Shown here piece after piece: positions 214 through 12,744 of a DNA stretch of 14,365 nt. A program made the position numbers and the translations under genes. The number at the start of each line of letters is the position of its first letter. Position 1 is the first letter of the stretch. The notes beneath the pieces were generated by a model. It did no database searches. It was given only the letters and a program-made list of their open reading frames with translations, and was not told the origin of the DNA. The stretch is from a virus (taxonomy: Duplodnaviria; Heunggongvirae; Uroviricota; Caudoviricetes): the IMG/VR virus record IMGVR_UViG_3300037420_000666; one strand, written 5' to 3'.

Positions 214-1407
214 TCAGCTCGCTTTGCGCGTGGCTTGAGGGGTCTGCATTGCCGCTTCCAGGCGGCGCATCTCGCGCGCATCGGCATCGCCTTCAAGCCA
301 TCGGCTGTAGGTCGCCAGGAACTCTTTGACCGAGTGCCCCAGCTGCTTGGCGCCGAATGCCGGGTTTACGCCGGCCATGAGCAGCTGCGTCGCGTAGGTG
401 TGGCGCAGGTTGTACGGCTGGCGGTACCGGATGCCCAGGCGAGCGAGGGTGCGCTTCCACCAGCGCAGCAGGTTGAGGTCGCTCCCCCATGCCTCGCCGG
501 TCGGCCTGGTCCACACGAAGCCCCCGGCGATCTGGCTATGCGCACGCTGCCGCTGCAGTGCCGCCATGGCGCGGCTGTTGAGCAGCACCTGCCGCGGCGC
601 CCCTGTCTTTGTGCTGTCCCTGTGCTTGCCGCGGATCACGGTCTCATGCACCAGGGCGCGGCCGGATGCCAGATCAATTGATGGCCACTGCAGGCCGATC
701 AGCTCGCCCGTGCGCATGCCGGTGAAGCCCCAGAACTCGAAGACGTTCCATACCGACTCCGGGTAGTGCTGCCGCATTTCGTCGAGGATCGCCTCCAGCT
801 CCTCGGGTGTGAACGGGTCCGGGTCCTGCCTGCGCGCCTTCTGGGCTTTGATCGTGGCCGTGACGTCCTCGGGCATGAGCTTGTCCACCACGGCGGCGCG
901 CACCGCTTGGCGCAGCACCATCAGGTATTTGGTCTGCGAGCGAGGAGCGAGGTCCGGGTGCGCGGCAAGCGCGTGATTGAGGCTGCCGGCCTTCAGGTCC
1001 ACAAGCAGCTGGTCGCCCAGCTTGCGCCCCTTGTCGTCGCACGGCGCCGCCTTCCAGAAGCGGGCTGCGGCGGCGTAGCCGGCGCGGGTGGTGGGCTGCA
1101 CGCGTTGCGCGGCTAGCCAGTTGTCGAGGTGCTTGGAGAGCGTCAGGCCTTCGGCCGCCGCGGCCTCGCTGGGGAAGTAGCGCCCCAGGTCGAAGCGGCC
1201 CAGCTCGATGTCGCGGCGGATCTCGGCCGCCAGGCGCTCGGCGTACTTGATGGCGGCCGGCGTGGGCTGCACCGGCGCGCCATCGGCCTTCAGGGTGTAG
1301 CGGTGCTGGACTCCGCCGACCGTAAACGAGAGACGGATGCTGCGCTCCCGGACTTCAACCCCCGACCCCTTGCGACCCACTTCATCACCCCCTGCAAATC
1401 GACCCAC
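214..1407 (-). CDS. int: Phage tyrosine integrase (site-specific recombinase)
   Basis: 397-aa ORF. N-terminal arm-binding-type region (GRKGSGVEVRERSIRLSF) and C-terminal catalytic region (RHTYATQLLMAGVNPAFGAKQLGHSVKEFLATYSRWL) are typical of lambda-family integrases. The annotated start at 1407 is GTG with no Shine-Dalgarno; an in-frame GTG at 1380 preceded by AGGGGG is a likelier start. Position at the end of a leftward operon next to an Xis-like gene fits. Confidence 0.9.
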   Translation of the reverse strand: MGRFAGGDEVGRKGSGVEVRERSIRLSFTVGGVQHRYTLKADGAPVQPTPAAIKYAERLAAEIRRDIELGRFDLGRYFPSEAAAAEGLTLSKHLDNWLAAQRVQPTTRAGYAAAARFWKAAPCDDKGRKLGDQLLVDLKAGSLNHALAAHPDLAPRSQTKYLMVLRQAVRAAVVDKLMPEDVTATIKAQKARRQDPDPFTPEELEAILDEMRQHYPESVWNVFEFWGFTGMRTGELIGLQWPSIDLASGRALVHETVIRGKHRDSTKTGAPRQVLLNSRAMAALQRQRAHSQIAGGFVWTRPTGEAWGSDLNLLRWWKRTLARLGIRYRQPYNLRHTYATQLLMAGVNPAFGAKQLGHSVKEFLATYSRWLEGDADAREMRRLEAAMQTPQATRKAS

Positions 1408-1583
1408 AAGCGACCGTCTGGGTCGCGGAAATACTCCTGGCCTTCGAGCCAGCGTCCATCTTCAATCTTGCGCTCCATGGCCTTGACTGTCATGCCGGTG
1501 AGCGTCGCCGCCAGCGACAGCATCACGCGCTGCGCCGGCATGAGCTGCACCACGGTTGCGGCGGCTTGCGTGTTCGTTTCCAT
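1290..1583 (-). CDS. Putative excisionase / Xis-like small DNA-binding protein
   Basis: Small ORF immediately upstream of int and overlapping its 5' end in another frame, as lambda xis does. Core MTVKAMERKIEDGRWLEGQEYFRDPDGRLWVDLQGVMKWV resembles winged-helix excisionases. Start chosen at the internal ATG 1583 (METNTQ...), preceded by GGAGG; ATG at 1595/1616 are alternatives. Confidence 0.5.
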   Translation of the reverse strand: METNTQAAATVVQLMPAQRVMLSLAATLTGMTVKAMERKIEDGRWLEGQEYFRDPDGRLWVDLQGVMKWVARGRGLKSGSAASVSRLRSAESSTATP

Positions 1584-2572: not shown

Positions 2573-3820
2573 TTATGCGGCGAGGGCGGCAGCCCACATG
2601 TCGGGCTGCGTGGCGCCGTTCTGGTAGACGATCTCGGGCAGCACGGTGTCGGCGGTGGGCTCGTCGCCTTCCCAGCCGTCCGGCCACGTCTCGGCGGCGA
2701 TCAGCTCGCGGATGCGCGCCTCTTCCTTGGCGTTGATCAGGCTGATCTCGGGCCGGCGCAGGGCGCGCGCCGCGGCGTTGCACTCGGCCTGGATGCCCAG
2801 GACGCGCTCCAGCGCCATGGAGCGGGCCTCCAGCGTCAGCGGGCCCATGCGCTGCGGGTTCTTGGCGATCGCGCCCGACTTCAGGCGCTCGGCGCCGGCC
2901 TTCTTCAGGCGGTGCTGCGGTTCGCGCAGCTCACGCCACAGCCGCTTCAGCCCGCGCAGCGGCGCCAGGTACTGCCAGTGCGGCAGGGCCAGCACCGTCT
3001 CCAGCGCCTTCTCCTCCTGGGCCAGCGGGCAGCCGATGCAGCCTGTGCGCGCGTTGATCTCCTCGGCCTCGTCGCCGCCGTAGGCGTCCGCGATGGCGGC
3101 CGTGCTCCAGTCGCCGAACTCGGCCGCGGGCGCCCAGTGCTTCAGCCACTCCCACACGTGGCACACGCGCCAGTGCAGCAGCGGCGCGAGGGTTGCAATG
3201 CGGCCGCGCAGACCCTTCGCGTTCGGCAGCACCTGCTGGTACCAGCCTTGGCCGCACTCGGCGCCATCCTTGCTGCAGCTCATTTCGATGCGCCGGTCAC
3301 GGATGGCGCTCTCGCCCTGGCGCACGCCGGTGATCATCAGGAAGTTGCCTTGCAGCTGCAGCGCGTCCAGGCGCTGCTCCAGCGCGTGCTGCATCGGGTC
3401 GATCTTGATCTGCCGCGTGCACCACCTCAGCGTGTTGTTGTTCGGCGGCGGCACACCGCGACCCAGGATGTAGACCATAAAGCGCTTGTCCATGGGCGCA
3501 CGCACCACGTCCACCTGGATGCCGCGCTCGCGCAGCTCGTCCATGATCTGTTCGGCTGCGATGGCCAGCGGCGGCAGCTCCTGGCGCGTGTCGGCGTAGA
3601 AGATGGTCAGCGACTGCGGCGCCGCGATCTGCCCGGCGTCGATCAGCCAGCAGATCATGGTGAGCGTTGCGCTGCTGTCCTTGCCGCCTGACCAGGCAAT
3701 GCCCCAGTGCGGATGGTCCGGGCCGTAGGCCTGCAGCGACTGAATCGTGAGCTCGATGCTCTCGGTCATCTGCAGGCGCTGCGCGGTGGCGTCGAAGAAG
3801 CTGCTCTGTATGCGGCTCAT
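2573..3820 (-). CDS. PP-loop ATP-pyrophosphatase / PAPS-reductase-like protein (DndC- or phage DUF3440-like)
   Basis: Start set at ATG 3820 (MSRIQSSFFD...) with GAGGGAAGGA upstream; the longer frame starts at GTG 3889. Contains the canonical PP-loop SGGKDS (WGIAWSGGKDSSATL) and a cysteine-containing C-terminal half (TGCIGCPL). A 14-nt gap to the next gene suggests one operon. Confidence 0.8.
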   Translation of the reverse strand: MSRIQSSFFDATAQRLQMTESIELTIQSLQAYGPDHPHWGIAWSGGKDSSATLTMICWLIDAGQIAAPQSLTIFYADTRQELPPLAIAAEQIMDELRERGIQVDVVRAPMDKRFMVYILGRGVPPPNNNTLRWCTRQIKIDPMQHALEQRLDALQLQGNFLMITGVRQGESAIRDRRIEMSCSKDGAECGQGWYQQVLPNAKGLRGRIATLAPLLHWRVCHVWEWLKHWAPAAEFGDWSTAAIADAYGGDEAEEINARTGCIGCPLAQEEKALETVLALPHWQYLAPLRGLKRLWRELREPQHRLKKAGAERLKSGAIAKNPQRMGPLTLEARSMALERVLGIQAECNAAARALRRPEISLINAKEEARIRELIAAETWPDGWEGDEPTADTVLPEIVYQNGATQPDMWAAALAA

Positions 3821-3926
3821 CGTCCTGTCCTTCCCTCGTTTCTTCGTTGAGCCGGGGCGTCCACCACCCCGGCCCACCACCCCGATCACGCGCCCAACGC
3901 GTGCGGTGCGGTGATGCGGTGCACGG

Positions 3927-6811: not shown

Positions 6812-7480
6812 TCAGGCGGCCAGCGGCATCGGGCGGCGCAGGGCGGCCTCGTGCTGGTCCACCACACGGCGGAAGTCCATCAGGTCGGACTCCAGGGCTT
6901 CGATTGCGTCGTCATCGCGGCGGATGCGCTGGATGAACAGGCTCTTGCCCACCGGTTCCAGCCAGGGGCAGAACACCACTAGGTCGCACCAGGCGCGGCC
7001 GGTGATCCAGAGTCCGCCCAGGATCTGGTCGCGGTACTCGTCGGCCGCGTGGGCCGGGTCCGTCCAGATCAGGCCCAGCTTGTCGCAAGCGGCCGGGCAC
7101 TTGATCTCGACCATGCCCACATCGCCCACGAAGCCGTCCGTGCTGTAGCCGAAGGCGCCGTCGTCGGTGAAGACGATGCCGGCCTCCATGGCCAGCGAGC
7201 CGGTGTGCTGCTCGTAGGCCTCGCGCGCTGCGGGCTCCAGCTCGGTGCCGCGCTTCATGGCCCACGTGACGAAGGTGTCATCCAGCGACGTGCCGCTGAT
7301 GCGCTCCATGGCCAGGGTCCATGCGTACTTGATGGCCTCGCTGCTGGGGTCGCCCGCCTTGCGGTCGCCGCTGGCGCGCTTCAGCTTCGAGCGGGCATCA
7401 CTGAAGCGGCTGGCGGTGATCACGCCGGCGCGCGCGGCCAGCCATTCCTGCGTGCCCTGTTGGACTTGAAGGAAGCGCAT
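6812..7480 (-). CDS. YqaJ-like viral recombinase-associated exonuclease (lambda Exo functional analogue)
   Basis: N-terminal QQGTQEWLAARAGVITASRFSDA is the hallmark YqaJ/PD-(D/E)XK exonuclease opening. ATG at 7480 lies 4 nt after the RecT stop, the classic RecT-exonuclease pair. Confidence 0.9.
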   Translation of the reverse strand: MRFLQVQQGTQEWLAARAGVITASRFSDARSKLKRASGDRKAGDPSSEAIKYAWTLAMERISGTSLDDTFVTWAMKRGTELEPAAREAYEQHTGSLAMEAGIVFTDDGAFGYSTDGFVGDVGMVEIKCPAACDKLGLIWTDPAHAADEYRDQILGGLWITGRAWCDLVVFCPWLEPVGKSLFIQRIRRDDDAIEALESDLMDFRRVVDQHEAALRRPMPLAA

Positions 7481-7483
7481 GGC

Positions 7484-8491
7484 TCAGGCCTCCAGCGCTT
7501 CGCCGCGCACCGCGATCAGCTTCTCCAGCCGCGTGCGCTCCTCGCCCTCGGGCAGCGTGGCCACGTCGTCGCCGATGAGCAACAACACCTGGGCGTCGCT
7601 GCAGCTGCCGATGCGCTGCTCCAACGCCACCACGTCCAGGCCCGGGGCAGCATCGGCGGCCGGCATGTCCACGGTGCGCGCAGCGTCGGCGTCGATCGCG
7701 GCTTGCTTCAGGCGCGGGTGGTGCTCGGCGAGGTGCTTGCGGTTGGCCGGGCCGGTGGACTTCCAGAATTCCTGGTACGCGGCCACGCCCTCGGCGGCGG
7801 CGTTCTCGGCGGCCTCCAGCAGGCCGGCGGGCATCTGCGGTGCTTCGGGCGCCTGCGGCTGCACGGTGTTGGCCGGGCCCATGTTCTTGGGTGGCGCGAT
7901 CTGCTCCAGCTCGTCGGGCGTGTAGATGCCCAGGATGGCGCCAGGCGTGTAGAGGCGGGCCCAGTTCTTGGCCTGCAGATATCCAAGCTGCTGTTTCGGG
8001 TTCGTCTTCCACAGCGGCGAATTCCTGGTCGTGACCGACTTCATGCACAGCCACTCGCCCCAGGTGATCTCCTGCTCGCCACGCAGCACCGCGCCCGCGC
8101 GGCACTCGACGGCTTCGCCGGTGCCCTTGAACTCGTACTTGAACGTGCCGTGGATCGCGCCGCTGGCCTGCACCACCGCGATGACCAGTTGCGCCTCGTA
8201 GCCCAGCGTGCCGTTGACCACGTGCGTCTTCTGGGCCACGGCGTAGGGGTTCATGCGCCACTGCGCGGCCTGCATCGCCACCGCCAGGCAGTCGCCCGTC
8301 TTGCCCTGCAGGTGCTTGGGCACGGTGATGGTGGCCTTGGCCATCTCCTGGGCCACCACGGCCAGGGCGTTCATGGTGGTGGCGTCCATCAGCAGGTCCA
8401 GCGCGCCAACGCGCGTCGGGCCTGCGGCCATGGCGGGCTGCTGCTCGATGGGGGCGGCCAGGGCCAGCGGTTGTTCGGTCATCGTGTTCAT
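7484..8491 (-). CDS. recT: RecT-family single-strand annealing protein
   Basis: 335-aa ORF. Motifs VPKHLQGKTGDCLAVAMQAAQWRMNPY...THVVNGTLGYEAQL...ECRAGAVLRGEQEITWGEWLCMKS fit the RecT/Red-beta family. ATG at 8491 preceded by GAGGA. Immediately upstream of the YqaJ exonuclease. Confidence 0.9.
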   Translation of the reverse strand: MNTMTEQPLALAAPIEQQPAMAAGPTRVGALDLLMDATTMNALAVVAQEMAKATITVPKHLQGKTGDCLAVAMQAAQWRMNPYAVAQKTHVVNGTLGYEAQLVIAVVQASGAIHGTFKYEFKGTGEAVECRAGAVLRGEQEITWGEWLCMKSVTTRNSPLWKTNPKQQLGYLQAKNWARLYTPGAILGIYTPDELEQIAPPKNMGPANTVQPQAPEAPQMPAGLLEAAENAAAEGVAAYQEFWKSTGPANRKHLAEHHPRLKQAAIDADAARTVDMPAADAAPGLDVVALEQRIGSCSDAQVLLLIGDDVATLPEGEERTRLEKLIAVRGEALEA

Positions 8492-11668: not shown

Positions 11669-11902
11669 TCAGCGTATTCGCTGAGCCAATTCATCATCAA
11701 GCGCAGCTAACATCCCGCGAGCAAATGTTGGATTCCGATGGGCTTCGCCGCTGGTATTTACAACGAACCCTCGTTGTTTTGTCATTGCGGCGTATGCGAC
11801 CCCTATCACTTCGCCTCGTTCCGCTCGCTCCAGAAGGTTTCTTAAGTCGGCCACCACGTCGTGTGGGGCCTCCTCCCGAACGAGGCGAAACGGAGGCTTC
11901 AT
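11669..11902 (-). CDS. Hypothetical 77-aa protein coupled to the repressor gene
   Basis: ATG overlaps the repressor stop (ATGA at 11899-11902) and is preceded by AAGGAAA. Sequence MKPPFRLVREEAPHDVVADLRNLLERAERGEVIGVAYAAMTKQRGFVVNTSGEAHRNPTFARGMLAALDDELAQRIR; no family recognised. Lower GC than the flanks. Confidence 0.55.
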   Translation of the reverse strand: MKPPFRLVREEAPHDVVADLRNLLERAERGEVIGVAYAAMTKQRGFVVNTSGEAHRNPTFARGMLAALDDELAQRIR

Positions 11903-12744
11903 GACTTCTTTTCCTTGCCGCTTTCATCGGTACGGATGATCCGCTCCATGCCCGGCATGGGGCGGTCGCTGAAGTACTTACCGCCGGGCGGCTGTTCCTT
12001 CTGAACCGGAACAGCGCGCGCGGTGCGCCCGATCCTTTCCAAGAATCGAGGCAATTCCTCCCGTGGTTTTATTTTTCGTGCCGGCACAGGGTGCGGCACG
12101 TAATAGACCCAAGTTACTTCGGTGGGGCTGAAACTTAAAACTTCCGGCGAGTTATAACTTCCAAATCTCCACCCGCCGCGCCGGCTCAGCAGTCGCTTGA
12201 GCATAGTCGAACCATCGGCCAAGCGCACAAGAACGTCATCCTCAAGATCGGGGTCGCTGCTTGGCTCGACTAGCGCATATTCGTTTGGCATGTATTTGGG
12301 GATCATCGAATCTCCGACGACCCGGCAGACAAACGCGTAATCGTCGCTGCTGAGCACCTCGGCAAATTCGGTGGCCTCCGAAAGCCAGTTGTCATCGAAT
12401 ATCCGCTCCGGCATTCCTCCCTGGCAGGTGCCGCACACGTAGACCGGGCGGACGCTGCGCGCCGGGAGTGTCTGAGGCGGAGCACTCTCTGTCGCAACCA
12501 TGACTGACAGGCCAGCACTGACCGTGCCCGGGTAGGCCGTCAGGCCCCAATGCTCCGGCCCAACCACATTTGCAAACAGAGCCCAGAGCCCCGGCAGCTT
12601 CTCCTTCGAGATGGTTCCGCGGTTCACCCAGTCCTGGATCGTCGGCGGCTTGACCCCGAAATGCTCCGCCAGGGCTTTCTTGGTGATGCCCTTTTTTAGT
12701 CTGGCCGCCTCGATGGCTTGCCCTAGTTCGATCCCGGTAAGCAT
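11899..12744 (-). CDS. CI/LexA-like prophage repressor (N-terminal XRE-type HTH, C-terminal S24 peptidase domain)
   Basis: 281 aa. N-terminal HTH (LGQAIEAARLKKGITKKALAEHFGVKPPTIQDWVNRG) and an S24 autoproteolysis domain with Ser and Lys motifs (VVGDSMIPKYMPNEYALV ... DGSTMLKRL). Carries an unusual ~60-aa C-terminal tail. Divergent from a Cro-like gene; AGGA lies 10 nt upstream of the ATG. Confidence 0.9.
   Translation of the reverse strand: MLTGIELGQAIEAARLKKGITKKALAEHFGVKPPTIQDWVNRGTISKEKLPGLWALFANVVGPEHWGLTAYPGTVSAGLSVMVATESAPPQTLPARSVRPVYVCGTCQGGMPERIFDDNWLSEATEFAEVLSSDDYAFVCRVVGDSMIPKYMPNEYALVEPSSDPDLEDDVLVRLADGSTMLKRLLSRRGGWRFGSYNSPEVLSFSPTEVTWVYYVPHPVPARKIKPREELPRFLERIGRTARAVPVQKEQPPGGKYFSDRPMPGMERIIRTDESGKEKKS

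Follow-up and report, generated by a model that had tools for sequence, protein, structure and literature searches.

The excisionase and integrase genes of a 14,365-nucleotide stretch of Caudoviricetes DNA (IMG/VR record IMGVR_UViG_3300037420_000666; the whole stretch is hereafter called the window) very probably form an ordinary temperate-phage xis-int pair in which int begins at GTG 1380 on the minus strand, xis has lost the TAG stop codon present in most of its relatives, and the resulting extension of Xis is a tolerated by-product. According to this interpretation, Int would be translated from GTG 1380 with the help of an AGGGGG Shine-Dalgarno (SD) element that lies inside the xis codons for Gln-Gly-Val, and Xis would be translated from ATG 1583. 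In the lineage of the window the TAG would have become TTG, such that ribosomes read 22 further codons in an alternative frame of the sequence encoding the arm-binding domain of Int, and they would then halt at the next TGA (1292-1290). The predicted product is a Xis of 97 aa in which a normal winged-helix core is followed by a Ser/Arg/Ala-rich tail that is predicted to be unstructured. The junction is likely to lie at the far end of the leftward early operon of a temperate phage of a high-GC betaproteobacterium.

The integrase and its start codon

The integrase frame is open on the minus strand from a GTG at 1407-1405 to its stop at 214 and contains a further in-frame GTG at 1380-1378, to which we have re-assigned the start. 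The resulting coding sequence (214..1380) specifies a protein of 388 aa that is, judging from its profile matches, a lambda-type phage tyrosine integrase with an arm-binding domain. It scores 61.3 bits against PF00589 (Phage_integrase; cut-off 27.1) and likewise 61.3 bits against PF12167 (Arm-DNA-bind_2; cut-off 22), the latter over residues 6-71 of the 388-aa form, and it matches the PHROG_1 integrase family at 2e-49. A profile of the integrase family also matches the solved tyrosine recombinases Tn1549 Int, XerD and lambda Int. In an alignment of 30 sequences, R223, K258, R326, H349 and Y358 (388-aa numbering) are invariant, and from their positions in the motif we take these to be the catalytic residues. 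The first His of the catalytic motif is replaced by Tyr323, which is itself invariant in this integrase family.

Homologous proteins point to GTG 1380 (1378..1380, minus strand) as the start: MGRKGSGVEVR, the sequence encoded from this codon, opens about 115 of the 120 best database homologues. Because the protein starts recorded in databases are the choices of gene callers, we compared the DNA of related loci, 160 from genomes and viral contigs together with three metagenomic contigs. A genome scan with the single protein had returned no confirmed relative, and it was the alignment-based repeat that found them. The alignment runs from Int residue 1, with ATG or GTG at the codon homologous to 1380, in 131 of about 150 related loci; that codon is ATG in most of the approximately 150 and GTG in about 15. 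Many loci carry an in-frame stop 1-13 codons upstream of the homologous int start with no start codon between the two, and in those loci the int start is therefore forced. The start given in RefSeq for bbp50 of Bordetella phage BPP-1 is the homologous codon as well, and the Pfam match to the arm domain opens five residues past the 1380 start.

The signals for initiation agree with this assignment. Seven nucleotides upstream of GTG 1380 lies the SD-like AGGGGG (1388..1393, minus strand), and the predicted pairing with the 3' end of 16S rRNA is -10.7 kcal/mol for this start, as compared with -2.7 kcal/mol for GTG 1407 and -3.3 kcal/mol for a third candidate, GTG 1272. In the background distribution 50% of windows reach -3 kcal/mol or lower and about 4% reach -8 kcal/mol or lower, and 126 homologous int starts have a median of -7.25 kcal/mol. 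The relative L003 has AAGGAG where the window has AGGGGG. GTG is a weaker initiator than ATG, the codon that most relatives use at this position. Taken together, the comparisons strongly support GTG 1380 as the probable start of a 388-aa Int.

The first-pass annotation of this DNA, which was made from the letters alone, had arrived at the same codon. Its proposal that the integrase starts at GTG 1380 and is nine residues shorter than a protein begun at 1407 is borne out by the homologue N-termini, the related loci and the SD pairing, and the AGGGGG that it placed upstream of 1380 is indeed present at 1393-1388. It had also described 1407 as lacking a ribosome-binding site, and the pairing predicted there is at background level. 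Conservation of the residues encoded upstream of 1380, which it had named as the observation that would speak against the shorter protein, is not what we found: homologues start at MGRKG and many have stops upstream. One statement needs correction, in that 1407 is not the annotated start, as it had been called, but the start of the longest open reading frame; the public JGI call is 1272.

An integrase of 397 aa begun at GTG 1407 (1405..1407, minus strand), the longest-ORF form that would share 118 nt with xis, is thus very unlikely. The codon is in frame and no stop intervenes before 1380, but an SD element is missing and the nine added residues ((M)GRFAGGDE) are unconserved, with many relatives carrying stops in the stretch. 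The nine codons are, rather, an alternative-frame reading of conserved Xis residues. Moreover, the corresponding codon is CTG in L003, and GTG at this position is confined to the window and to contigs identical to it.

Even harder to credit is the public JGI call for the identical sequence, which has int beginning at GTG 1272 (1270..1272, minus strand) and encoding 352 aa, thereby leaving xis and int without an overlap. This start was picked by the gene caller on four contigs, and it has the attraction that the long overlap disappears. It does so, however, at the cost of residues 1-36, with nine invariant positions among them (including R3, G7, R11, R16, F19, G23, T29 and L30), and of about half of the PF12167 arm-binding match, which is whole only with a start at 1380 or 1407. 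Its SD duplex is weak (-3.3 kcal/mol), none of 120 homologues uses it except the JGI call itself, and upstream of it the base composition by codon position has the pattern of coding DNA read in the int frame. We therefore regard the JGI call as a gene-caller artefact, a truncation that cuts off invariant N-terminal residues and half of the arm domain. The 36 residues were probably dropped because gene callers penalise long overlaps.

The excisionase, its neighbours and the attachment site

The excisionase-like frame, a candidate recombination directionality factor, is open from ATG 1616 to a TGA at 1292-1290, with further ATG codons at 1595 and 1583. The last of these (METNTQ...) is the probable start, giving a coding sequence of 97 aa plus TGA (1290..1583, minus strand): it agrees with the alignment of homologues at METNTQ, with the JGI call (97 aa) and with a predicted SD pairing of -10.3 kcal/mol. 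An identical database protein, P0121, is likewise called from ATG 1583 and is listed with a precomputed PF06806 hit. Scanned directly against Pfam, the window's Xis reached the threshold of no family, and close relatives score 17-19 bits, under the Pfam cut-off of 22. The protein does match the PHROG_539 excisionase family (3e-11). A database search with the single protein recovered only itself; a profile built from Xis relatives gathered 1453 database proteins with a modal length of 69 aa, many of them named excisionase by NCBI, with PF06806/DUF1233 present among them. Searched against PDB sequences, the Xis profile gave spurious matches only.

An AlphaFold2 model built with 38 homologues predicts a core at residues 19-71 (1371..1529, minus strand) with the order strand-helix-helix-strand-strand-helix and a pLDDT of 72-86. 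The modelled core has the small winged-helix (MerR-like) DNA-binding fold. In addition, xis lies immediately upstream of int on the same strand in the window and in 137 of 153 related loci. The label excisionase-like used in the first-pass annotation is thus well founded in the PHROG excisionase match, the family, the predicted fold and the position of the gene, and excisionase activity is the predicted function.

The window has a G+C content of 68%, and several of its other genes share the strand of xis and int. These include a CI-like repressor (11899-12744), a RecT-like annealing protein (7484-8491), a RecE-like exonuclease (6812-7480) and, two genes upstream of xis, a PAPS-reductase-like gene (2573-3889; PHROG_12882, E=2e-234). 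After the last of these comes a gene (1641-2558) whose product shows, in its C-terminal half, similarity at about 1e-40 to several PHROGs that have no assigned function. The CI-like repressor, RecT and exonuclease on one strand resemble the leftward early operon of lambdoid phages, and given these lambdoid-like neighbours on the same strand it is likely that xis and int are co-transcribed. Although the early-left layout is lambda-like, the integration module is most like that of the podophage BPP-1.

Expression signals of other kinds did not emerge from the scans. Lambda-type modules have a cII-dependent promoter (pI), within xis or at its beginning, that drives int by itself. In the window, a search for sigma-70-like promoters over 1-2000 found none, with the caveat that host-type promoters may not fit the pattern, and lambda cII-type TTGC-N6-TTGC repeats were not above chance, with none on the coding strand in xis; here too host promoters may differ. 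An Rfam scan of 1-2000 gave zero matches, and megablast of the xis-int junction against phage records gave no match.

Disagreement over start codons is not limited to int. The public JGI starts differ from the longest open reading frames for three neighbouring genes, int among them: the frame ending at 1641 is 305 aa in the JGI call (from 2558) and 380 aa as the longest ORF (from 2783), and the PAPS-reductase-like gene is 415 aa (from 3820) and 438 aa (from 3889), respectively. Start-codon ambiguity is widespread across this high-GC window.

The window is identical base for base to the 45-kb contig L167 from 1700 down to 89 and diverges from it beyond that point (position 4185 of L167). Past the break, L167 runs into endolysin and holin genes, and the window shares with the 10-kb contig L168 other DNA that ends in SD-ATG. 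Lying about 125 nt past the int stop, the break has the look of an attachment-site junction, and it lends indirect support to the predicted attP x attB recombination by Int. L167 and window/L168 would in that case represent two forms, one of them integrated and the other circular or attP-like. The xis-int sequence of the window was recovered in independent assemblies from two samples.

The overlap and the loss of the xis stop codon

The two frames share 91 nt if int starts at 1380 (1290..1380, minus strand) and 118 nt if it starts at 1407, which accounts for the range of about 90-118 nt given in the first-pass annotation. The reading frames of int and xis differ by an offset of 2 nt. The segment encoding the C-terminal extension of Xis, 22 residues with the sequence LKSGSAASVSRLRSAESSTATP, occupies 1293..1358 on the minus strand, where int encodes its arm-binding domain in a different frame. 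The TGA that ends xis (1290..1292) is made up of Leu30 (CTG) of int and the A of Lys31 (AAG).

The origin of this extension can be traced to a single codon. Codon 76 of xis, TTG (1356..1358, minus strand), takes its first two bases from the end of int codon 8 (GTT) and its third from the start of codon 9, and it stands at the site of the xis TAG in 61% of related loci. In an ungapped comparison, the int frame reads GGC GTA GAG in L003 and GGG GTT GAA in the window, and the xis frame reads GCG TAG and GGG TTG, respectively. Thus, GTT in place of GTA at int codon 8 leaves the Int protein unchanged, removes the xis TAG and lets Xis run on for 22 residues. Overlaps in the three nearest relatives measure -1 nt (L001), +1 nt (L002) and 25 nt (L003), so that the extension appears to be specific to the lineage of the window.

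At the high G+C composition of the window stop-free alternative frames are common, and the xis frame within int contains just 8 stops in 388 codons. When the window's int was resampled with synonymous codons, an overlap of at least 91 nt was obtained in 52% of trials, so that the distance over which xis stays open within int is no greater than chance would give. With the window's own Int sequence and neutral codon choice, the stop at +91 is the single likeliest one (33%).

Another feature of the nearest relatives concerns the junction itself. L001 (1950-2040) and L002 (2455-2545), whose int genes are 75-77% identical to that of the window, have junctions of the form TGA-g-ATG and TGATG with Xis ending in WVARGKGGC. 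The junction of the window resembles both the xis 3' end and the int 5' end of these two loci. The sequences hint that the overlapped segment may have been duplicated in the L001/L002 lineage or have collapsed in that of the window. Local alignment of the L001 and L002 junctions scored no better than shuffled sequences (p ~0.09 and 0.2). We also considered ribosomal frameshifting or a Xis-Int fusion, and rejected both: we saw neither a slippery sequence nor any other signal, and the homologues are separate proteins.

With the int SD element and start codon inside xis codons, ribosomes translating xis would pass over the ribosome-binding site of int. The xis stop of the window lies 91 nt downstream of the int start, which makes it unlikely that the two genes are coupled by stopping and restarting, as may occur at the TGATG of L002 and perhaps where the overlap is 25 nt. 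Nor does RNA structure appear to hide the int ribosome-binding site, since folding of 1320-1450 gave a result the same as that of shuffled sequence (z=0.02), and in the literature on translational coupling of excisionase and integrase we found nothing specific to this family. Coupled expression of the two genes, which the first-pass annotation ascribed to the overlap, is plausible only in the sense of co-transcription.

The arrangement may be compared with three phages. As in lambda, xis lies directly upstream of and overlaps int at the end of a leftward early operon by the attachment site, and an integrase with an arm-binding domain is paired with a small winged-helix Xis. In lambda, however, the overlap is 23 nt rather than 91 nt, and a short overlap of about 20-25 nt is absent from the window. 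The first-pass description of a lambda-like arrangement therefore holds for the order of the genes and the existence of an overlap and fails for its length, which is derived through the lost xis stop. The closest named phage is BPP-1 (Bbp49/Bbp50; NC_005357), whose integrase is 47% identical over its full length. It too has xis followed by int on one strand, an int start at the codon homologous to 1380 and a Xis of the same DUF1233-type family. It differs in having a 25-nt overlap, an ATG start and a TAG stop, where the window has a GTG start, a lost TAG and 91 nt, and in its helicase/kinase neighbourhood, as compared with the lambdoid early-left operon (CI-like repressor, RecT and exonuclease) of the window. 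Pseudomonas phage PS-1 (NC_029066), whose integrase belongs to the same broad family at 31% identity, is more distant than BPP-1, and its annotated excisionase/integrase overlap of 160 nt is unlike that of the window in length and stop position. Long xis-int overlaps are thus already in public annotation. The module in the window is of a known kind, set apart from the usual pattern of its family by an int that starts with GTG and by the loss of the common xis stop.

The family norm and the Xis tail

The xis stop could be placed relative to the int start in 137 loci, or 114 after dereplication. The family norm is a 25-nt overlap ending in TAG, found in 70 of the 114 (61%). This stop is formed by int codon 8 (GTA in 67 loci and ATA in 3) together with the G that opens the almost invariant Glu codon after it. 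Elsewhere in the same int genes GTA accounts for just 9% of Val codons, and its use at codon 8 is explained by the fact that it supplies the TA of the xis TAG. The xis stop of this family is therefore a constraint on a silent int site, holding the rare GTA at codon 8 (window 1359-1357).

Synonymous resampling, in which each Int protein and its codon usage were kept, indicates how far the loci depart from neutral expectation. The +25 stop is observed in 63% of loci and expected in 12%, and overlaps longer than 50 nt are observed in 15% and expected in 76%, with the qualification that the surveyed loci are phylogenetically related and the contrast between observed and expected values overstates the number of independent events. 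Given the excess of the +25 stop, the short xis-int overlap looks to be actively maintained in the family. The exceptions, overlaps longer than 50 nt in 18 of the 114 loci (approximately 16%), fall in at least three separate int lineages. Most of these loci belong either to one diverged clade, with int genes 65-75% identical and overlaps of 52-145 nt, or to a second small group. The stop at +91 is found in the window and in five other dereplicated lineages.

Past residue 71 the AlphaFold2 model of Xis has zero DSSP elements, with a pLDDT of 54-61 in the tail. The base composition at the three codon positions over 1380-1293 is 0.69/0.52/0.79 (GC1/2/3) in the int frame and 0.54/0.79/0.68 in the xis frame, a coding signature that fits the former and not the latter. 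Most simply, then, the tail would be a tolerated by-product and not a selected feature.

It is improbable, in our estimation, that the 22 residues are instead a selected functional extension of Xis, overprinted on the arm-binding domain of int, with the long overlap being adaptive. The recurrence of long overlaps in at least three int lineages would fit such a function, and their retention in a clade that has diverged to 65-75% int identity may mean that they are more than tolerated there. The tails are also alike, being Ser/Arg-rich (...SRSRS...), and the alignment to the PHROG_9668 'excisionase' family reaches into the tail. In lambda the C-terminal tail of Xis contacts Int. The likeness among tails, however, is to be expected, since each is an out-of-frame reading of the conserved SIRLSF... 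segment of int, and both the predicted lack of structure and the base composition following the int frame argue against selection on the tail as a protein. Moreover, the preference of the family as a whole for short overlaps over neutral expectation suggests that an extension is usually selected against, and the window's nearest relatives are without a tail. If a functional tail has nevertheless arisen repeatedly, it would alter the cooperation or contact between Xis and Int, or the stability or turnover of Xis, and a single Int-silent substitution would toggle Xis between a 75-aa and a 97-aa form.

With the tail most simply viewed as a by-product of stop-codon loss, the main value of the analysis is a correction of the annotation. 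The longest-ORF rule adds 9 spurious residues to Int and the public call removes 36, and GTG 1380 is the start to be used when Int is cloned or modelled. For the family, loss of the silent codon-8 position makes Xis longer by 10-40 residues, and although the mechanism is not new, the xis-int junction provides a tidy case of overlapping genes that constrain each other.
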